Of a stretch of DNA of 50,002 nt, positions 615 through 49,515 are shown piece after piece. The position numbers were made by a program, and so were the translations under genes. Source of the DNA: Shigella phage phiL; sequence record PP134913. One strand, 5' to 3'. The notes beneath the pieces are model-generated. The model had not been told where the DNA came from. It was given only the letters and a program-made list of their open reading frames with translations, and searched no databases. Within the stretch, counting starts at the first letter, position 1; each line of letters opens with the position of its first letter.

Positions 615-653
615 GGTGATTCCTCTGATTGGTATCTCGTTTTGATGGGGTAA

Positions 654-699
654 CTATAGCAAGATACCCCGATCCTGTTTTAACAATTCGTGCTATTTA
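654..699 (-). promoter_or_regulatory. conserved promoter-like element (motif at about -42, hairpin, TATAGT -10)
   Basis: Gene-strand AATAGCACGAATTGTTAAA, 22 nt, TATAGT, then conserved TACCCCATCAAAACGAG leader. Confidence 0.55.
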
Positions 700-1391: not shown

Positions 1392-1437
1392 ACTATACCA
1401 GGTTATCCCGATCCGGTTTTAACAAAAAGTGCTATTT
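1392..1437 (-). promoter_or_regulatory. conserved promoter-like element
   Basis: AATAGCACTTTTTGTTAAA, 22 nt, TATAGT, CATCGACAACGA. Confidence 0.55.
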
Positions 1438-2592: not shown

Positions 2593-2610
2593 ATAGCACT
2601 TTTTGCTAAA
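2593..2610 (+). promoter_or_regulatory. motif copy in divergent control region
   Basis: ATAGCACTTTTTGCTAAA. Confidence 0.4.
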
Positions 2611-2796
2611 AATGGAGATGGCTACCAGGCGAGCCGGGTAACACTAAATCCTCCCTCTCACAATCATTGCATTCTCATCAACAAATCAACCAACTGTTGC
2701 ACACCATGCAATAATCACGTTTCATCATTCGAGATCAATCGGGATCGCAATTATTCCACATATTCCAGTATTGATGGAATAATGAGCAATTATTGG

Positions 2797-2824: not shown

Positions 2825-3580
2825 ATGTTGGCAGGGTATGATTCATCACATCAACCAATCAGTATGGGATTTGCAATGAAACTAATTTGGTCACTATTCG
2901 ACGGTTCCGGCCTTGCTGGTCATGAACTGGCTAAGCAAGGTCATAAGGTGATGTGCTTCAACTTTGACGGGGCCGATCACGGAGATTATGCAAAGTACAA
3001 TGCCCGGGTAGAGCATCCGAATATTGAGTATGTGAACGTCTTCATTGATGATAAGTTCGAACGTGATGCGATCGCTGGTGTGTATGGCAAGCCGGATTTA
3101 ATCATGGCCTTTCCTCCATGCACTGACCTAGCTGTTAGTGGCGCTCGTCACTTTGCAAGTAAGCGTGAGCGCGATCCGTTATTCCAGGAGAAGGCTGTTG
3201 CAACCGCACGGATTGCTGCGAATATTGGCGACGCCCTGGGCGTGACCTACATCATTGAGAATCCGGTTAGCGTTCTGTCATCTGCCTGGAGAAAACCAGA
3301 TCACTCATTCAATCCCTGGGAGTATGGCGGCTATCTTCCCGAGAATGACTCACACCCCTGGTTCCCGATGTATATTGCGCCGCGCGATGCTTACCCGAAA
3401 AAGACGTGTCTTTGGACCTCGGACGATTTTGTCATGCCGGAGAGAAAGCCAGTAAGCCTGCCTGACGGGTACTCTGCGCAGCAAAACAAGCTGGGCGGCA
3501 AGTCGGCAAAGACAAAGCTGATACGATCCTTGTCGCCGCGTGGATTTTTCAAAGCGATCGCAAATAGCACTTTTTGTTAA
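2825..3580 (+). CDS. compact DNA cytosine-C5 methyltransferase-like protein (251 aa)
   Basis: Ordered motifs LFDGSGLAG (motif I-like), FPPCTDLAVSG (PC catalytic motif), IIENP (ENV-like); start codon uncertain. Confidence 0.5.
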   Translation: MLAGYDSSHQPISMGFAMKLIWSLFDGSGLAGHELAKQGHKVMCFNFDGADHGDYAKYNARVEHPNIEYVNVFIDDKFERDAIAGVYGKPDLIMAFPPCTDLAVSGARHFASKRERDPLFQEKAVATARIAANIGDALGVTYIIENPVSVLSSAWRKPDHSFNPWEYGGYLPENDSHPWFPMYIAPRDAYPKKTCLWTSDDFVMPERKPVSLPDGYSAQQNKLGGKSAKTKLIRSLSPRGFFKAIANSTFC

Positions 3581-3607
3581 AACTCGATCGGTGTGATTTG
3601 GCATAAT
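3563..3607 (+). promoter_or_regulatory. conserved promoter-like element
   Basis: AATAGCACTTTTTGTTAAA ... CATAAT TACCTCATCGAAACGAG. Confidence 0.5.
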
Positions 3608-3645: not shown

Positions 3646-3981
3646 ATGAAATACGAAAATCGCGGTAACGAAATCATCAAAATCGAAAACGGCGTTGAGT
3701 ACATCATGGTAGCTTGCAAGGTTAACGGCATGGATTCCTTCGTATGGGAAGAAATCAAAACTGAAGACAAAGCTGCTAAATTCCTGACCTGTGTTAACCA
3801 GCCGGACGCGGAACGTGACACCTTCACCCGTTACGGTAAATATGAAATCGTTCGCGAGACTTCATGCTTCTGGTGGGTTAAGCCTAACAGCCAGTACAAA
3901 TTCCCGCGCAAAATAAGCAAGCGCACCATGCGTGAAGCTGGCTTCAAGAAAGCGTATGCCGCTGAGTTCGATATTGATTAA
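3646..3981 (+). CDS. hypothetical protein (111 aa)
   Basis: RBS CAGGAG upstream; promoter element 3563..3607. Confidence 0.5.
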   Translation: MKYENRGNEIIKIENGVEYIMVACKVNGMDSFVWEEIKTEDKAAKFLTCVNQPDAERDTFTRYGKYEIVRETSCFWWVKPNSQYKFPRKISKRTMREAGFKKAYAAEFDID

Positions 3982-4024
3982 TAGCACGAATTGCTAAACG
4001 CCCCGAAGGTGATCGGGGTATAGT
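3980..4024 (+). promoter_or_regulatory. conserved promoter-like element
   Basis: AATAGCACGAATTGCTAAA, 22 nt containing hairpin CCCCGA/TCGGGG, TATAGT. Confidence 0.55.
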
Positions 4025-4957: not shown

Positions 4958-5097
4958 TTTATATTCACACTTTCTATACTGGCAAATTTAACAGCGTAAA
5001 AAATGTTCGCGTTTACGATAGTCACCAAAAAGCAATGATGCAGAAAGTAGTTCTAGGTGGAACAATCAAAGAGTGTAAAGTAATTTCCGAGTACTGA
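4954..5097 (+). CDS. small hypothetical protein (47 aa)
   Basis: ATGA overlap with upstream stop; not in ORF track. Confidence 0.3.
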   Translation: MIYIHTFYTGKFNSVKNVRVYDSHQKAMMQKVVLGGTIKECKVISEY

Positions 5098-5141
5098 TAG
5101 CACTAATTGCTAAAGACAATAAATAGGGAGTAAGGTATATT
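5097..5141 (+). promoter_or_regulatory. conserved promoter-like element
   Basis: GATAGCACTAATTGCTAAAG ... TATATT within hairpin GGGAGTAA/TTACTCCC. Confidence 0.5.
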
Positions 5142-5615: not shown

Positions 5616-5659
5616 ATAGCACGATTTGTTAATATTTCCGTAAGGTCATTTGATAAAGT
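5615..5659 (+). promoter_or_regulatory. conserved promoter-like element
   Basis: AATAGCACGATTTGTTAAT ... TAAAGT. Confidence 0.45.
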
Positions 5660-6114: not shown

Positions 6115-6159
6115 AATAGCACTTTTTGCAAAACGCGTGTACCATTGGCGGTGTATCAT
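6115..6159 (+). promoter_or_regulatory. conserved promoter-like element
   Basis: AATAGCACTTTTTGCAAAA ... TATCAT in hairpin CGGTGT/ACACCG. Confidence 0.5.
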
Positions 6160-9722: not shown

Positions 9723-9767
9723 ACTATACCCGAATCCCTTCGGGCGTTTTTATCAATTAGTGCGATC
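9723..9767 (-). promoter_or_regulatory. conserved promoter-like element (degenerate motif)
   Basis: TATAGT plus AACCACATCAAAAAC leader; motif GGATCGCACTAATTGATA. Confidence 0.4.
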
Positions 9768-11710: not shown

Positions 11711-11755
11711 ACTATACCCGACTTTCGCCGGGTATTTTTAGCAATTAGTGCTGAA
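11711..11755 (-). promoter_or_regulatory. conserved promoter-like element
   Basis: TTCAGCACTAATTGCTAAAA ... hairpin ... TATAGT. Confidence 0.5.
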
Positions 11756-12733: not shown

Positions 12734-12779
12734 ATAATGCCAGATTCCATTCCGGCAGTTTTAACAAAAAGTGCTATTT
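12734..12779 (-). promoter_or_regulatory. conserved promoter-like element upstream of Dam gene
   Basis: AATAGCACTTTTTGTTAAAA ... CATTAT ... CAAAACGAGAGG leader. Confidence 0.5.
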
Positions 12780-13190
12780 CATCATTTCGTAGATTGAGAT
12801 CTTGAATTGCGCGAATCCGTATGCGACGGCAGAGAAGCCGCCACGCTCCCGGACCTTTCGAAGAAACTCCCTTTGCTTGTCGCTGACTGGTGACGCCTTT
12901 CCTTTGCCTGACTTATTAACCCGCTTTAGTTCTATTGCTGCAAACGGATATTTTGAGTTGACACCAATCAGGATAACGAAGTCTGACACGCCTTTAAGTA
13001 ATCCAGCCTGTTCATCCCTTAGTGCCGATGTGATTGTTTTTTCACCTTCATTGACGGTGTGCCAAAATAGAAGGTGAGGGAAATTGTATTTCAACCAGGA
13101 CACGCAATCCACCTGATGAGCATCCTCCTTTCGAATGTCGCTGGGATCTCGCTCGTAAAACTCTAAGTAATCTCCTTTGTCTGTAATCAT
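12774..13190 (-). CDS. VRR-NUC domain nuclease
   Basis: PD-(D/E)xK-type residues (SDFVILI ... AIELK); ATGA overlap with helicase stop. Confidence 0.65.
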   Translation of the reverse strand: MITDKGDYLEFYERDPSDIRKEDAHQVDCVSWLKYNFPHLLFWHTVNEGEKTITSALRDEQAGLLKGVSDFVILIGVNSKYPFAAIELKRVNKSGKGKASPVSDKQREFLRKVRERGGFSAVAYGFAQFKISIYEMMK

Positions 13191-15205
13191 TGCGGGATAT
13201 CCTCCATACCGAAATCTTTACGTGAAATAATATCTTCCTTCTTCTGGTTGCGTCGGTGTGTGACTCGTACCGGATGAGCAATATGATGTGAGTACTGCAC
13301 GATCTTGATTGCGTTCTTCATTCCGATAAAGTAGCGACGCATTTTAGGATCTGACACATGAGGCAATACGCCCTTCGTTTTCCATAGCGTACCGCAAATC
13401 TTAGAGTCGGACTCAGGGAAGAATTTTTCATACGCCTTGAACTCATCACCATCATCGTTAATCAGCGTGTATTTGTATATCACGCCCTTTTGGTTTTTGG
13501 TTAGCGTTACCTCAAAATTCTTGACCTCATACCAGTCATTCTTGGTGTACGCCTTGCCGGACAATTTCAGGTTAGGATCGACAAGTGACACATCACAGCA
13601 ACGACAAACTCGGGCGACAACGTCATTCTCGGCACCACATCCTTTAACAAGAATTTTCCCGGTTCGCTCATCAACCTGATCCTCGCAAATCTGAGAAGTC
13701 CAGAAGTGATCGCATCTCTCACCGTCTATAACGTTAACGCATCGGCGAGCGTAGAAGCTATTAACGCAACCACACTTAGGACACGTTTTCGGGTCTTTGC
13801 CGTTTTCAAAACGCTTCTGGAATTGCGCCTGCTCAAGTATCGGATCGAAATAAAGTTGGCCCAACTCATCCATAGTGCCAGCGAAATCCCATACCAGATG
13901 GTCTTGCTTAACCATTCCTTCAGCAACCTGCCATGATTTAAGCAGCCGCATACCCCTACCCAAAAGCTGAATCAACAGAGTGAGAGATCCTATCTTGCGG
14001 AGTATGACACTAAAATCCCAATTTGGAACGTTAACGCCAGTAGTGAGCGCCATTACCTGAAAGGTGTATTTAATCTTCCCGGCCCTTACATCGTCCAGAA
14101 TCTTCTTGCGCGTTTTGGTGTCTGTGTCGCCAGTGATGATTGCATAGGTGCTTCCTGGAGGCAGTGCTGCCGCCGCCTCTTTACAGTGACGCACCCCAGC
14201 GCATGTAATCAGAACCGCGTTACGCTCTTCAGCCTTTTTGGCGACCATTTGCATGATTCGCTGAGTAAGAGATTTATCATGAAGGATCTCATCTTCCATT
14301 GCCTTCATATCTTTCTCTGTAAAGTCCTGTACGCCGTCCTCGCTTGATGCCTTGAACTTATCCAGATCGTAGTGTACGCCGTCAGTTGAACCGAATATCG
14401 TCGGCACAACAGATCCGAACTCAATCAGATAGTTTGTGTCGATATCAGTTACTCGCTCACGCCAGAATCCCAGCGCTTTATGATTCTCTACCAGAATAGG
14501 AACTACACCCCGAAATTCAGATCCGGTCATACCAAATATTCTGAGATCGTGACCGTGAACCTTTTTACAGCGCCGCATCATTTCCATGATTACGATCGTG
14601 TACTGACTGCGCTTGGTTCCAAGTAAAGGTTTTCCATCATTACCAATCATGGGGACATCTCCGTCCATGATAACTTTCCCTTTTTCTCCCCTCATCTGTT
14701 CCATCGTTTCCTTGCCTTCTATTGCTTGCGCAAGGTCTTCCCAATCCACCTGGTGACATTCGTCGATCCCAATTACATGCGGGACAAAATCAGCCAACTC
14801 ATTGTCGAGGCCATTTGCAACCGTACCCTCAGAGCCAACCACGATCGGGAAGTAGCAGGACTTGATTCCAAGCGATGCTGAGAAGATGGAGTTCGTTACC
14901 CCGAAGTTGTCGATCTCCTCACTATCCTGATCGACAATCTCACCCTGCCGGGCAAGCACAAGCATTTTCAGGCCCATTTTTTGACACTGCTTTGCCACCA
15001 TAGCGAATATGATTGTTTTACCCGCAGATACTGACGCTTTAACAAAGAATGGATGCTCGTAATTTGACAGGCGTTTTGCGATCTCGGCATAAGCAACAAC
15101 CTGATACGGATAAGGAACGACCTCACCGACAGTAAATCGTTCTTGAGTGCGTTTTATATAGTCCTCGCCAAGTAATGCGATTTGCTTCTTGATGTTAATT
15201 GTCAC
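13187..15205 (-). CDS. SF2 DNA helicase with C-terminal Cys-rich region
   Basis: Walker A SAGKT, DECH box, C-terminal CPKCGC...C...C cluster. Confidence 0.8.
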   Translation of the reverse strand: MTINIKKQIALLGEDYIKRTQERFTVGEVVPYPYQVVAYAEIAKRLSNYEHPFFVKASVSAGKTIIFAMVAKQCQKMGLKMLVLARQGEIVDQDSEEIDNFGVTNSIFSASLGIKSCYFPIVVGSEGTVANGLDNELADFVPHVIGIDECHQVDWEDLAQAIEGKETMEQMRGEKGKVIMDGDVPMIGNDGKPLLGTKRSQYTIVIMEMMRRCKKVHGHDLRIFGMTGSEFRGVVPILVENHKALGFWRERVTDIDTNYLIEFGSVVPTIFGSTDGVHYDLDKFKASSEDGVQDFTEKDMKAMEDEILHDKSLTQRIMQMVAKKAEERNAVLITCAGVRHCKEAAAALPPGSTYAIITGDTDTKTRKKILDDVRAGKIKYTFQVMALTTGVNVPNWDFSVILRKIGSLTLLIQLLGRGMRLLKSWQVAEGMVKQDHLVWDFAGTMDELGQLYFDPILEQAQFQKRFENGKDPKTCPKCGCVNSFYARRCVNVIDGERCDHFWTSQICEDQVDERTGKILVKGCGAENDVVARVCRCCDVSLVDPNLKLSGKAYTKNDWYEVKNFEVTLTKNQKGVIYKYTLINDDGDEFKAYEKFFPESDSKICGTLWKTKGVLPHVSDPKMRRYFIGMKNAIKIVQYSHHIAHPVRVTHRRNQKKEDIISRKDFGMEDIPQ

Positions 15206-15219
15206 GGCTATTTAATCCT

Positions 15220-15248
15220 TTGAATCGTTGTATCGTTTACGCTATAAT
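15220..15248 (+). promoter_or_regulatory. sigma70-like promoter TTGAAT-N17-TATAAT for Cro-like gene
   Basis: Near-consensus hexamers with 17-nt spacer, about 50 nt upstream of ATG 15300. Confidence 0.6.
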
Positions 15249-15267
15249 ACACGACATACAGTAAACG

Positions 15268-15286
15268 TTTTTAGCAAAAATTGCTA
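15268..15286 (+). promoter_or_regulatory. perfect palindromic motif copy in leader of Cro-like gene
   Basis: TAGCAAAAATTGCTA between -10 (15243..15248) and RBS. Confidence 0.5.
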
Positions 15287-15299
15287 CAGGAGAATTAAG

Positions 15300-15752
15300 A
15301 TGAATATGCAACGTATCGCAGAGTCAACTGGTGAAATCGATAAACGTCACATTAATGGTAACAACGGAACGCGACGCGGTAAAGACAAAAAGCCTCGCCA
15401 GCGCTGCGGCTTCTATATTCATAAAGAAGAAACACGAGCGGGACTGCGAGCGCGACTTGACGCTCTTATTGAATATTACGGCGGCCCAGCGGCCTGCGCA
15501 AAAGCTCTGAAGGTTAGCAATCAGACCGTGCAAGGATGGAAAGATCGCAACATGATTTCGTGGCAAGGTGCTGAAGCTGCGCATCGTGCTTACCGCCGTC
15601 AGGGGTGTAAAGGATTCCGCGCCGCATGGCTGCGATTCGACCTGAAGTTTGACGGTAACGGAAAATGCCTTGAGAAGAGATGCAAGAATAAGAAATTTAT
15701 GCGCGTCGTGAAGAAGGAAGATATCGGAACGACCAATAGCATTTTTAGTTAA
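15300..15752 (+). CDS. Cro/YdaS-like HTH DNA-binding protein
   Basis: GGPAACAKALKVSNQTVQGWKDRN HTH resembling YdaS/Cro family; AGGAGA RBS; own sigma70-like promoter. Confidence 0.55.
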   Translation: MNMQRIAESTGEIDKRHINGNNGTRRGKDKKPRQRCGFYIHKEETRAGLRARLDALIEYYGGPAACAKALKVSNQTVQGWKDRNMISWQGAEAAHRAYRRQGCKGFRAAWLRFDLKFDGNGKCLEKRCKNKKFMRVVKKEDIGTTNSIFS

Positions 15753-15761: not shown

Positions 15762-15797
15762 CGCGTAGCGGGTTAACATCCTTCTACGCGTTTTTTA
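15762..15797 (+). terminator. intrinsic terminator after Cro-like gene
   Basis: Hairpin CGCGTAG...CTACGCG followed by TTTTTTATTT. Confidence 0.5.
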
Positions 15798-15812
15798 TTT
15801 GGAGATCTGGAA

Positions 15813-16770: not shown

Positions 16771-16786
16771 TGTCCATTGCAAGTCA

Positions 16787-16830
16787 GATAGCACAATGAT
16801 AAAATCATTGTTTAGCAATTCGTGCTATTT
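16787..16830 (+). promoter_or_regulatory. motif copy plus half-site and palindrome CAATGAT-AAA-ATCATTG upstream of tail fibre RBS
   Basis: GATAGCAC, CAATGATAAAATCATTG, TTTAGCAATTCGTGCTATTT ending 8 nt before AAGGAG. Confidence 0.45.
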
Positions 16831-19769: not shown

Positions 19770-19843
19770 CTTAACTTCTCCTGATTGGTGTATGAGGTGC
19801 ATTATAACACCTCATTAATTATTTGTTTAGCTATTTGTGCCGT

Positions 19844-20908: not shown

Positions 20909-20939
20909 TGTGTTTATCTCCTTCGTTTACGATGGATTC

Positions 20940-20967: not shown

Positions 20968-21376
20968 CCTGATACATGTAATTGGTGTGTAATAGCGTGT
21001 CTATATCGCTCAAGTTACAACCAGCATTAACAGAATCAATGGCTTAAGTATGTTTTTATGTTATGTCTATTGTGTAATGCTTGTAACCGCTTTTTCTTAG
21101 AAATGCAGAGATACCTACAAATGGAATCCAGATTGATTAAATTTTGAACATATATGATAGAGGTTTGACGAATCAATCAAATCACCTGTTACACGATAGA
21201 CAACTGTTACACAACAATAATTATATATATAAAGCTAAAATTAAATATTATCTATCTATATATATTATATAGAGTTTTTATCATATCTCTCTGCTGTCGG
21301 ATGTGGTGGATTTTGTAACACCCGCTCCGGTTACAAAAATAGACACCTGTTACACGAAAAAATTGTAATAGTGCTA

Positions 21377-21405
21377 TTGCAATAAAAGTAAATGCGACAT
21401 ACAAT
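21377..21405 (+). promoter_or_regulatory. sigma70-like promoter TTGCAA-N17-TACAAT for lipoprotein gene
   Basis: Hexamers with 17-nt spacer about 25 nt upstream of start. Confidence 0.55.
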
Positions 21406-21434
21406 GCAATTACACTAACGACGAGGACATGCAA

Positions 21435-26102: not shown

Positions 26103-26113
26103 GATGTTTACCT

Positions 26114-26131
26114 TTTTGTGCTATTTATCGG
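26114..26131 (-). promoter_or_regulatory. degenerate motif copy immediately upstream of J-like gene start
   Basis: Gene-strand AATAGCACAAAAAGGTAAAC then ATCATG. Confidence 0.3.
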
Positions 26132-31636: not shown

Positions 31637-32271
31637 TTAGTTATTCTGCTTAGCAATCATTTCAAGCGCTTTCGCTTCCATGATTCTAACGTCCTGCAAT
31701 GCCAGTTCTTCATCATCTATTTTATAGATTTTGAACAGCATAGGCAAAACATTATAGTCAAGACCATAAGCTCCAGCGCCTGAACTTCTCCACTGAGTGA
31801 GCATTGACGTAAAAACATTCCACGCCTTCACCATTTCAGCGTCGCCAATTATCGTTTCCGGTTCCTCGTCTTCATAGTCAGAAAGACTGAGGCCAACCGA
31901 TCGTAATTGCTCTTCTGTCGGCGGTTTCTGATATAACAGATAAACCGCCCGTTTTAGTTTTTTGCGCGGTGTCCGGCGAGCGCCTTGATGTAAGTTGCCG
32001 TCAGATTGTACGCTGCGGAAGGGTAATACTGTACCAGTTTACGCGCATTCTCTTCGTTAAATTCTTCTTCCAGATTCCACCCGGACGCGATCTTAGTGAT
32101 GAAATCGCTATCATTCATTTCTCCCTGTTTAGTGTACATATCCTGTACTTCTTTACTGGAAAGGTGGCGCACGGTAAAAATAATCGTCGCATCTTCACCG
32201 TTTGGCATGGTGAAAGTAACCGGAAGTTTGAAGTCTGGAAGCTGGCCCAGCACAAAATTGAATTTAGCCAT
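31637..32271 (-). CDS. tail assembly chaperone G-T fusion made by -1 frameshift
   Basis: -1 frame open from slippery site to stop at 31637 with no intervening stop. Confidence 0.5.
31954..32271 (-). CDS. tail assembly chaperone (lambda G-like)
   Basis: Between major tail and tape measure; ends with slippery A_AAA_AAC. Confidence 0.6.
   Translation of the reverse strand: MAKFNFVLGQLPDFKLPVTFTMPNGEDATIIFTVRHLSSKEVQDMYTKQGEMNDSDFITKIASGWNLEEEFNEENARKLVQYYPSAAYNLTATYIKALAGHRAKN
31957..31963 (-). other. -1 programmed frameshift slippery heptamer A_AAA_AAC
   Basis: Heptamer in G frame immediately before the G stop codon. Confidence 0.5.
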
Positions 32272-32290
32272 GATGTTCTCCTGATTGGTT

Positions 32291-32310
32291 GATAGCACTT
32301 TTTGTTAAAA
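32291..32310 (-). promoter_or_regulatory. motif copy immediately upstream of tail chaperone RBS
   Basis: Plus-strand GATAGCACTTTTTGTTAAAA adjacent to CAGGAGA RBS. Confidence 0.45.
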
Positions 32311-32339
32311 GTGAATTGAATAAAGTTGATACGATGATT

Positions 32340-32372
32340 CTACAGAAATGAAGAAGGGGGCGCAAGCCCCCT
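32340..32372 (-). terminator. possible terminator after major tail gene
   Basis: Hairpin GGGGGCTTGCGCCCCC followed by TTCTTCATTT (weak U-tract). Confidence 0.4.
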
Positions 32373-36001: not shown

Positions 36002-36021
36002 GATTACTTCTCCTTAGTTAA

Positions 36022-36049
36022 TAAAAAAGCCGTGATTATGTTCACGGCT
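36022..36049 (-). terminator. intrinsic terminator immediately upstream of capsid RBS
   Basis: Hairpin GCCGTGAACATAATCACGGC followed by TTTTTTATT. Confidence 0.6.
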
Positions 36050-36054
36050 TCAAT

Positions 36055-36074
36055 AATAGCACTTTTTGTTAAAG
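36055..36074 (-). promoter_or_regulatory. motif copy upstream of capsid gene, followed by terminator hairpin
   Basis: Plus-strand AATAGCACTTTTTGTTAAAG. Confidence 0.45.
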
Positions 36075-36092
36075 CGTCAAAGTATTTTTATG

Positions 36093-42741: not shown

Positions 42742-42757
42742 AAATCCATCCTCTTTG

Positions 42758-42778
42758 TTTAACATTTAGTGCTATTTT
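42758..42778 (-). promoter_or_regulatory. motif copy immediately upstream of TerS RBS
   Basis: Gene-strand AAATAGCACTAAATGTTAAAC then AAAGAGGA RBS. Confidence 0.45.
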
Positions 42779-44530: not shown

Positions 44531-44562
44531 TTCGATTTTCTCTATTCGTTGTCGATGAGGTA

Positions 44563-44608
44563 ACTATATCAAATCACCCCATCGACGCTTTAGCAATTCG
44601 TGCTATTT
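44563..44608 (-). promoter_or_regulatory. conserved promoter-like element
   Basis: AATAGCACGAATTGCTAAAG, 22 nt, TATAGT, TACCTCATCGACAACGAA. Confidence 0.55.
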
Positions 44609-46098: not shown

Positions 46099-46137
46099 GG
46101 TGATTACTCTGATTGGTTGCTTAACTCAACGAAGGGC

Positions 46138-46182
46138 ATTCTATCAAATACCCTTGAGCAAGTTTTAGCAATTCGTGCTATT
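46138..46182 (-). promoter_or_regulatory. conserved promoter-like element
   Basis: AATAGCACGAATTGCTAAAA ... TAGAAT. Confidence 0.5.
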
Positions 46183-46627
46183 ACCAGCAACTGATCTCAT
46201 AATCAGCCCAAGTGTCAAAGCTACACTGGCTGAAGTCGCCGCCGTAGTTTTCCATAATTTCATCGACCAGGAAGTAACAGGACTCACCGTTACGGTAGAA
46301 GTATGAATCTGCAACGTTACGCGCCCAGCGTCCGGCATCCTTCTTGCTCATCTTCCAGTATTTCATTGCAATTTTCTTGAATGCACGCACAACACGCTTG
46401 CGGATCTTAATGTGCTTGTACACCGCGTTGCAGCCGTAGGCCATATATTCGTTATCGCCAAGATTCTGCATAATGTACGGATTTACTTCTTTTGACGTAA
46501 TCATCAGATCGCCATCGCATAGACGCGCATCATGAATACTTGCTGTCATGTAGTGACCTTTGAACATTCCGATGCCGTGAAGAGTGTATTCATCGTTAGG
46601 CGTTTCAATGCAAATTAAGTGTTTCAT
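46181..46627 (-). CDS. hypothetical protein (148 aa)
   Basis: Start set at ATG with GAGGAAG RBS; promoter element 46658..46702. Confidence 0.5.
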   Translation of the reverse strand: MKHLICIETPNDEYTLHGIGMFKGHYMTASIHDARLCDGDLMITSKEVNPYIMQNLGDNEYMAYGCNAVYKHIKIRKRVVRAFKKIAMKYWKMSKKDAGRWARNVADSYFYRNGESCYFLVDEIMENYGGDFSQCSFDTWADYEISCW

Positions 46628-46657
46628 TAGTGCTTCCTCGTTTGTTGGTGTAGGGGA

Positions 46658-46702
46658 ATCATAGCGCATTCCCCTTGATAGGTTTTAGCAATTCGTGCTA
46701 TT
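46658..46702 (-). promoter_or_regulatory. conserved promoter-like element
   Basis: AATAGCACGAATTGCTAAAA ... hairpin GGGGAAT/ATTCCCC with TATGAT. Confidence 0.5.
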
Positions 46703-48164: not shown

Positions 48165-48204
48165 AGCTGATTCCTGTGATTGGTTGCTCTGCTTCAATAA
48201 GGCC

Positions 48205-48250
48205 ACTATATCAAATGGCCTTGCGGAAGGTTTAGCAATTCGTGCTATCG
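48205..48250 (-). promoter_or_regulatory. conserved promoter-like element
   Basis: GATAGCACGAATTGCTAAA ... hairpin GGCCA/TGGCC with TATAGT. Confidence 0.5.
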
Positions 48251-48909: not shown

Positions 48910-48954
48910 ATTATACCAGTCAGGCCAAATCCCCTTTTAACAATTCGTGCTTAG
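48910..48954 (-). promoter_or_regulatory. conserved promoter-like element
   Basis: AAGCACGAATTGTTAAAA ... TATAAT ... CACATCAACCAC. Confidence 0.5.
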
Positions 48955-49470: not shown

Positions 49471-49515
49471 ACTATATCGCAACCCCGGAATTGAGTTTTA
49501 ACAAAAAGTGCTATT
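49471..49515 (-). promoter_or_regulatory. conserved promoter-like element
   Basis: AATAGCACTTTTTGTTAAAA ... TATAGT AACCACATCGACAACGAACGAGGG. Confidence 0.55.

Follow-up and report, generated by a model that had tools for sequence, protein, structure and literature searches.

A dispersed marbox-like element in the pir–helicase promoter region of the T1-like Shigella phage phiL

The pir gene and its product

We analysed a 50,002-nucleotide stretch of DNA from Shigella phage phiL (record PP134913; here called the window and numbered from its first letter), with emphasis on the regulatory gene pir at 15300..15752 and on a short DNA element that lies in front of it and recurs throughout the window. 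Between positions 13000 and 17000 the window shares 96.9% identity with Shigella phage Shfl1 and 91% with coliphage T1, which identifies a T1-like coliphage, and its gene order is that of the Shfl1 and T1 records in reverse orientation. The initial annotation, made from the letters alone, had called a plus-strand gene of 150 codons at 15300..15752, and this call is borne out by the open reading frame and its ribosome-binding site (RBS). The reading frame corresponds to Shfl1p58 and T1 orf23, a transcriptional regulator by RefSeq annotation, and its product is 97% identical to the T1 protein, which has been named Pir, for 'prophage induction regulator' (Laganenka et al. 2019, PMC6737242). Its position between the helicase and primase genes is kept in nine genomes. 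The gene had been described as sitting by itself on the plus strand, where it is in fact followed by the primase and tail fibre genes. A terminator-like hairpin with a T run follows pir and was overlooked by a simple terminator scan because its loop is long.

Pir is assigned to PHROG 2856, 'transcriptional regulator', with an E value of 2e-76 and as a full-length orthologue. Pfam signals for a helix-turn-helix (HTH) domain are sub-threshold, with E 5.5e-5 and 23.3 bits for P22_Cro (PF14549, gathering cut-off 30.2) and E 1e-3 and 19.2 bits for YdaS (PF15943, gathering cut-off 30), where about 30 HTH residues align. A profile of six Pir orthologues matched the Cro structures 5w8y, 1rzs and 3bd1 in the Protein Data Bank (PDB) with E values of 2e-3 to 1e-2 over residues of about 54-91, a segment that aligns with the HTH of P22 Cro and of a Xylella prophage Cro, and the T1 record for orf23 notes an HHpred match of 97% to P22 C2. 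The Cro/YdaS-like family proposed initially finds support in a probable Cro-type HTH core, seen in the PDB profile matches and, at scores below the gathering cut-offs, in Pfam. A single-sequence AlphaFold model reached a pLDDT of 39, too low for use. Compared with the single-domain regulators Cro, P22 Cro and YdaS, Pir is longer and has a conserved C-terminal segment that Cro proteins do not have; a conserved basic N-terminal segment (DKRxxNGNNGxxR..DKKxR) is likewise not found in Cro proteins. The predicted recognition helix differs among genera, reading NQTVQGW, IQVVQQW, PQAVEEW or LKTVWGW.

The T1 gene has already been characterised with gfp fusions in E. coli. In that study Pir activated Phol and Pdam, repressed Ppir and PrecE, and left Porf65 unchanged; Orf65 activated Porf65 and repressed Ppir; and cAMP-CRP repressed Ppir, Pdam and PrecE (PMC6737242). 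The T1 promoter fragments, including a Ppir-gfp fusion that covers the same sequence as discussed here, were active in uninfected E. coli, and no binding site for Pir was defined (PMC6737242). The accompanying claim of lysogeny has been contested (PMC8262962), and the reporter data have not. In T1 the gene has the same helicase–primase position, and its promoter and leader differ from those of the window at a few bases, among them T in the window for G in T1 at 15282, within the element; no functional difference is expected. The autoregulation predicted in the initial annotation is therefore correct and was already known, as negative autoregulation of pir is published. The same annotation had considered Pir the only HTH regulator candidate outside the phosphoesterase, which does not hold: T1 Orf65 is a regulator by experiment, and the T1 record marks orf7 and orf10 as HTH-like.

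Probable overlapping divergent promoters upstream of pir

The near-consensus promoter proposed for pir, TTGAAT-N17-TATAAT, is recovered by a consensus scan, in which it agrees at 10 of 12 positions (coordinates of all features are given in Table 1). Between its -10 hexamer and the RBS lies the palindrome TAGCAAAAATTGCTA, with 6-bp arms and a 3-nt centre, at 15272..15286. It had been placed correctly between -10 and RBS, with a start 4 nt off at 15268, and it had been taken for the most perfect copy of the dispersed motif. Its perfect symmetry is a private single-base variant, the T at 15282: Shfl1, Eco_BIFF, Sfin-3, T1 and 67 of 67 related contigs show asymmetric GTGCT, a GCAC or GCAT form, instead. 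An RNA hairpin in the pir leader was considered and rejected, as the 6-bp stem exists only in this phage and relatives read TAACA...TGCTA, with an A-C mismatch.

The palindrome is the core of a 20-bp element at 15268..15287, which corresponds to roughly +13..+32 in the pir transcript. On the minus strand, this copy shows the 22-nt spacing from core to -10 hexamer that is found in the other copies, the hexamer being a TATTAT that overlaps the pir -10 by 5 bp. Downstream of TATTAT follow a leader of about 30 nt, an AAGGA and the GTG start codon of the helicase gene at 15205; the transcription start of this predicted helicase promoter, P_hel, would lie near 15237 as judged from sequence, spacing and a CA signal. 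The arrangement is conserved: 9 of 9 genomes and all 67 distinct pir-upstream regions from IMG/VR have the element on the helicase strand, always in the same orientation and followed at 17-18 bp by a -10 hexamer. Most likely, then, the copy at 15268..15287 is the upstream element of the divergent helicase promoter rather than a pir operator. Its position could still hinder pir transcription as well. Because the two -10 hexamers overlap, both promoters cannot be occupied at once. The picture of a simple operator in the pir leader is thereby corrected to one of two overlapping divergent promoters that share an AT-rich -10 segment.

Both -10 hexamers are bracketed by a 7-bp inverted repeat, CGTTTAC/GTAAACG, which is a candidate operator for Pir or Orf65. 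In T1 each arm extends to 9 bp; outside Tunavirus the repeat is not kept. In a post hoc k-mer search over five T1 reporter fragments, TTTACG and two A-runs were common to the four Pir-responsive ones, and TTTACG was missing from the unresponsive Porf65 fragment; the dam copy is not conserved in the window, where it reads TCTACG. These observations are weak evidence that CGTTTAC/GTAAACG (TTTACG) may be the true site of Pir or Orf65. GTAAACG recurs in the recE leader near 20925.

Anatomy of the dispersed element

Allowing at most three mismatches, the motif has 24 matches in the window against 2.56 expected, a number reached in 0 of 100 shuffles. Besides the copy in front of pir, about 17 copies are centred near -42 relative to the -10 hexamer, as the initial annotation had seen for copies elsewhere in the window. 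In most copies a TATAGT-like hexamer comes after 22 nt and is itself followed by a leader and RBS that are conserved. In its extended form, AATAGCAC-nWW-TTGYTAAAA, the element is 20 bp long and asymmetric.

A promoter profile was built over seven genomes from at least four Drexlerviridae genera, with the symmetric seed TAGCA-N5-TGCTA and orientation assigned by the -10 hexamer only. The resulting set held 87 promoters, 74 of them with identical spacing. The profile of these 74 reads aAATAGCAC(t/g)WWTTGYTAAAAc, then tGnTAtaaT, with a CA start-site signal 7 nt later. Its asymmetry is pronounced: position 6 is C in 68 of the 74 promoters and the mirror position 10 is T in 72, and both flanks of the element are AA, where a symmetric site would need TT on one side. 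At 17 bp upstream of the -10 the profile of the 74 promoters shows no TTGACA-like signal, and TGn is frequent. In the window, about 18 early/middle promoters have a forward element 18 bp before the -10, spanning about -50 to -31, often with a TGn extended -10. The motif is invariant across Drexlerviridae genera.

The repeat as such is not new. A 21-nt direct repeat of phage TLS, aaATAGCACnnnTTGnTAAAA, was described in 2024 and its function left open (PMC11447400). It is the same element, present in about 20 copies, oriented with transcription, about 76 nt from start codons and divided into A, T and G subtypes; its authors suggested a stoperator, an enhancer site or an UP element, and drew no link to the marbox, to a fixed 18-bp distance from the -10 or to the pir/helicase region (PMC11447400).

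In each class II-type promoter, the 40-nt segment after the element (for example 46640..46681, 44547..44586 and 48189..48228) contains its own G+C-rich inverted repeat, which sits within the 18-bp spacer or brackets the -10 and differs in sequence between promoters. These spacer/-10 segments are more structured than shuffles (mean z -2.3, with 53% below -2, for 104 promoters from eight genomes) and might act as weak terminators for the gene upstream, as sites of RNA processing or as a help in melting the promoter. The leaders of many genes (for example 620..650, 46100..46130 and 32270..32292) contain recurrent modules, namely CATCGA(A/C)AACGA, located upstream of the Shine-Dalgarno sequence, and an extended RBS, AACCAATCAGGAG; several genera have the two in common, including TLS and 'Motto'.

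Match to class II marboxes

The consensus used by Grainger's laboratory for sites of the host activator MarA is the 15-mer GCAnnWWnTGnnAAA, GCANNWWNTGNNAAA (PMC12052159). The window contains 21 exact matches to it, compared with about 3 in shuffles, and a similar excess is seen in seven other Drexlerviridae genomes. At 16 of the 21 matches a TAnnnT hexamer follows at 18 bp (in one case 19), always in forward orientation, and two further matches have CATAAT or CATTAT at 18 bp. A longer, 19-bp marbox consensus reads AYnGCACnnWnnRYYAAAY; with at most one mismatch it is found 20 times in the window and about 3 times in shuffles. The positions at which the phage element is degenerate are those at which the marbox is degenerate (Y14 and the central W positions).

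The correspondence extends to promoter geometry. In E. coli MG1655 the class II promoter of micF reads ACAGCACTGAATGTCAAAAC, 18 bp, TAGAAT, which is the phage arrangement; the marbox of mar itself reads ATGCCACGTTTTGCTAAAT. According to the RamA cryo-EM paper, the class II site of micF lies near -41 with the core CACT-N7-AAA, and the class I site of acrA reads TTT-N7-CGTG. T-type phage copies conform to CACT-N7-AAA and G-type copies to CACG-N7-AAA. Class II promoters for MarA, SoxS, Rob or RamA are reported to be without a -35 hexamer (Salmonella ChIP-seq regulon paper; ChIP-seq, chromatin immunoprecipitation with sequencing). The phage promoters thus share with mar/sox/rob class II promoters such as micF the forward orientation, a centre at about -41, 18 bp to the -10, the lack of a -35 and a core of the GCAC-N7-AAA type.

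We also scored the copies with a marbox matrix derived from 70 Salmonella sites at which ChIP-seq had shown MarA, SoxS, Rob or RamA in vivo. Phage copies reach 14-17.5 bits, the one at 15268..15287 scoring 14.1, whereas for the ChIP sites the leave-one-out median is 10 and the highest score 17.1; 25 sites in the window reach the upper quartile of the ChIP sites, against 1.6 in shuffles. Host marboxes are degenerate, whereas the phage copies, about 20 per 50 kb, form a near-identical 'super-consensus'. No MarA-like protein encoded by the phage was found by tblastn.

Marboxes can also repress: one located in the promoter spacer represses E. coli pbpG. The phage capsid promoter likewise has the element within its 16-bp spacer, and in the tail fibre, TerS and pir promoters it stands just downstream of the -10, so that binding to these copies would be expected to repress. 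What is new here is the asymmetric form of the element, its match to the marbox, the fixed 18-bp spacing to the -10 and the assignment of a copy to the helicase promoter.

Candidate readers of the element

From sequence and position, we lean, by a little, towards reading the copy upstream of pir as a marbox for the host proteins MarA, SoxS or Rob, placed in class II position for the helicase promoter. The element would be bound by these monomeric activators with two HTH motifs (by RamA in Klebsiella, Enterobacter and Salmonella), and at about 18 early/middle promoters the bound activator would replace -35 recognition and contact RNA polymerase. Activator and polymerase on P_hel would switch helicase transcription on and, through promoter interference, hinder that of pir. 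Copies overlapping or directly following the sigma-70-like capsid, tail fibre, TerS and J promoters would hold these down when occupied. Pir would then repress its own promoter probably through sequences other than the element. Since the T1 fragments are active in uninfected E. coli, host machinery is sufficient for their expression. The element is conserved across genera while the Pir helix varies and Orf65 is mostly absent, so the phage regulators do not track the motif.

The initial annotation had instead suggested a single factor, possibly Pir, that autoregulates and acts at -42. On this account Pir, made at once from its sigma-70 promoter, would bind TAGCA-N5-TGCTA as a dimer, activate the -42 promoters and shut off its own gene via the leader copy, whether it replaced a host marbox protein or competed with it. 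T1 Pir does repress Ppir, where a copy lies at about +13..+32, and does activate Pdam, where a copy lies at -42; its predicted HTH is of Cro type, and P_pir, with 10 of 12 consensus positions, needs no activator. Pir is also found in every motif-bearing genome tested. Its homologues are found in 824 phage records. All 80 pir loci in IMG/VR are at least 51% identical and Drexlerviridae-like, so Pir and the motif are not separable by phylogenetic distribution. The reporter responses part from the motif at the remaining promoters, as Porf65 is unaffected by Pir although its cloned fragment holds a consensus copy at -42, and Phol and PrecE are regulated by Pir yet carry no copy. An element that is asymmetric and oriented over 74 promoters is not expected of a symmetric dimer site, the perfect palindrome occurs in 0 of 67 related contigs, and the recognition helix differs between genera over one and the same DNA element. 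A chance agreement with the marbox in sequence, orientation and 18-bp spacing would be required as well, and is improbable. We consider it unlikely that Pir reads the element.

Other phage proteins have even less in their favour. T1 Orf65 activates Porf65, which has a G-type copy at -42, and represses Ppir with its leader copy, and for orf7 and orf10 weak HTH matches by HHpred are given in the T1 record. Homologues of Orf65 (46181..46627 in the window) are found in only 65 phage records, against 824 for Pir, and tblastn did not detect it in Webervirus, Hanrivervirus, Braunvirinae and Enterobacter-phage genomes that each have 13-21 motif copies. Being confined to Tunavirus and a few others and missing from most motif-bearing genera, Orf65 was rejected as the general factor. 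Neither Orf65 nor the orf7 and orf10 products have a DNA-binding domain by Pfam, and their genes are themselves behind marbox-type promoters, so they could not start the programme. That one of these three proteins is the reader seems to us very improbable.

A dedicated protein might be dispensed with altogether if the element were a DNA signal contacting polymerase (UP-like, or a displaced -35) or an RNA signal, its likeness to the marbox being coincidental. UP-like or 'stoperator' roles were proposed by the authors of the TLS study (PMC11447400); an extended -10 is present in many of the promoters, which might fire without help, and the structured spacer/-10 segments described above could fit such a role. 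Against this stand the 22 bp between TTGYTA and the -10, which are outside the sigma-70 spacer range and by which TTGCTA was rejected as a -35 hexamer, and the composition of the element, which contains G and C and is sequence-specific, unlike the A/T tracts of UP elements. Given the A-C mismatch, the core has no conserved RNA hairpin, and the element precedes the start site in the -42 promoters. Its scores are moreover at the very top of the range of a matrix derived from protein binding. We think such a protein-free signal improbable. A sigma-54 promoter (TGGCAC-N5-TTGC, with GG and GC 10 bp apart) was rejected too, as the element reads TAGCAC-N3-TTGC, 2 bp short in spacing and with AG for GG.

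Several points nevertheless weigh against the host marbox proteins as readers. The literature searched contains no binding or genetic link between MarA, SoxS or Rob and a T1-like phage, and no mapped start sites for T1-like phages. Pir activates Pdam and represses Ppir, both of which carry T-type copies, and pir has the best factor-independent promoter of the region, as would fit a phage master activator that is made first. The phage copies are far less degenerate than host marboxes and have additional fixed positions, A3, T11, T15 and A19, which could reflect a different or additional reader. Ordinarily MarA and SoxS are not induced. Rob is largely sequestered under standard growth, as cited in the Salmonella regulon paper. 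T1 grows very well all the same. Finally, 'Pseudomonas phage Motto' (ON843697.1) has the same promoters; its G+C content of 45% makes the host label doubtful, and a host-range test by way of this phage was for that reason uninformative. Both 'Motto' and 'Campylobacter phage A13a' share the marbox-type promoters, the RBS modules and the G+C content of about 45% with coliphages, and both host labels look doubtful.

Copies of the element and neighbouring features

The copies of the element are listed in Table 1 together with the features of the pir region. For the tail fibre, tail chaperone, capsid, TerS and J genes, the initial annotation had placed a copy immediately before the RBS. This is accurate for the tail fibre (16813), tail chaperone (32293) and TerS (42760) genes. 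The capsid copy (36057) is upstream of its gene and separated from the RBS by a hairpin, and the J-gene site is present and only a half match. The layout of the tail fibre copy is the same in T1, BHUENT2 and 12210III, and that of the capsid copy is conserved in five genomes, including T1, TLS, A13a and Klebsiella phage cp25.

Table 1. Features of the pir region and copies of the marbox-type element in the window
Feature	Position	Strand	Details
pir (T1 orf23 homologue)	15300..15752	+	150 aa; ATG at 15300 preceded by GGAG; regulator with predicted Cro-type HTH
Terminator-like hairpin and T run after pir	15762..15799	+	GACGCGTAG...CTACGCGTTTTTT; T1 annotates a terminator at the same place
P_pir	15220..15248	+	-35 TTGAAT (15220-15225), N17, -10 TATAAT (15243-15248); 10/12 consensus positions
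20-bp marbox-type element GTAGCAATTTTTGCTAAAAA	15268..15287	-	core palindrome 15272..15286; exact match to GCANNWWNTGNNAAA; -10 18 bp downstream
P_hel -10 TATTAT (predicted)	15244..15249	-	predicted start near 15237
Helicase gene (T1 orf22 homologue)	13187..15205	-	GTG start 15205; Shfl1 and T1 annotation
7-bp inverted repeat CGTTTAC (15234-15240)/GTAAACG (15261-15267)	15234..15267		brackets both -10s; candidate Pir or Orf65 operator
dam promoter marbox-type element	12758..12777	-	18 bp to CATTAT; T1 Pdam fragment contains copy, Pir activates fragment
orf65 promoter marbox-type element	46682..46701	-	18 bp to TATGAT; T1 Porf65 fragment begins 10 nt upstream of copy
Class II-type element	677..696	-	18 bp to TATAGT
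Class II-type element	1416..1435	-	18 bp to TATAGT
Class II-type element	3564..3583	+	18 bp to CATAAT
Class II-type element	3981..4000	+	18 bp to TATAGT
Class II-type element	5097..5116	+	19 bp to TATATT
Class II-type element, one mismatch	5616..5635	+	18 bp to TAAAGT; upstream of orf7 homologue
Class II-type element	6116..6135	+	18 bp to TATCAT
Class II-type element	9747..9766	-	18 bp to TATAGT; upstream of orf14 homologue, which precedes holin gene
Class II-type element	11735..11754	-	18 bp to TATAGT
Class II-type element	19824..19843	-	17 bp to TATAAT; upstream of erf
Class II-type element	44587..44606	-	18 bp to TATAGT
Class II-type element	46162..46181	-	18 bp to TAGAAT
Class II-type element	48229..48248	-	18 bp to TATAGT
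Class II-type element	48934..48953	-	18 bp to TATAAT
Class II-type element	49495..49514	-	18 bp to TATAGT
Tail fibre copy, reverse orientation	16809..16828	-	after promoter TTGCAA-17-TAAAAT (16777-16805), just upstream of RBS; repressor-type position
Capsid copy, reverse orientation	36056..36075	+	inside spacer of minus-strand promoter TTGACG-16-TATTAT
Tail chaperone copy, reverse orientation	32292..32311	+	adjoins RBS; TACGAT 18 bp downstream on antisense strand
TerS copy	42756..42775	-	directly after extended -10 TGgTAAAAT, directly before TerS RBS
J-like tail gene copy, half match ATAGCACAAAAAGGTAAACA	26105..26124	-	after extended -10 TGtATAAT, in front of gene
Copy without -10 hexamer	2593..2612	+	divergent intergenic region

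In the region 32292..32340 (plus strand), the tail chaperone copy with its antisense TACGAT could give rise to a short antisense transcript that runs into the major tail gene's terminator. In the capsid leader, the hairpin GAAGCCGTG...CACGGCTTTTTT (36002..36055, minus strand) is terminator-like and lies between promoter and RBS, which suggests attenuation or processing; T1 annotates a promoter and a terminator at this place.

The intergenic region between recE and cor (20977..21420) contains iteron-like repeats, ATAGACA(C/A)CTGTTACAC, at 21183-21217 and 21339-21360 together with inverted partners. Between these repeats is a (TA)n palindrome, rich in A and T, at 21220-21268, and the region lies upstream of a near-consensus recE promoter, TTGACT-16-TATAAT. 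By its sequence it looks like a replication origin or a dense regulatory region.

Discussion

We tentatively put forward a wider proposal, as possible rather than probable. The early/middle programme of the Drexlerviridae may be wired to host MarA, SoxS and Rob (and RamA) through about 20 near-perfect class II marboxes per genome, with reverse or overlapping copies holding down the pir, capsid, tail fibre and terminase promoters. In that case, replicating phage DNA could bring about the early-to-late switch by titrating the host factor, or the switch could result from competition with Pir.

If the marbox reading is right, it would account for an element that is conserved in all T1-like phages and has so far lacked an explanation, and a lytic phage would be using a host antibiotic-stress regulator as activator of its early genes. 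On the wider proposal, phage growth would be expected to respond to inducers of multidrug resistance such as salicylate, oxidants and bile salts. The marbox reading would also predict altered susceptibility to T1-like phages under drugs and stresses by which the mar/sox/rob response is induced; these phages often contaminate laboratories and form part of therapy cocktails directed at E. coli and Klebsiella.

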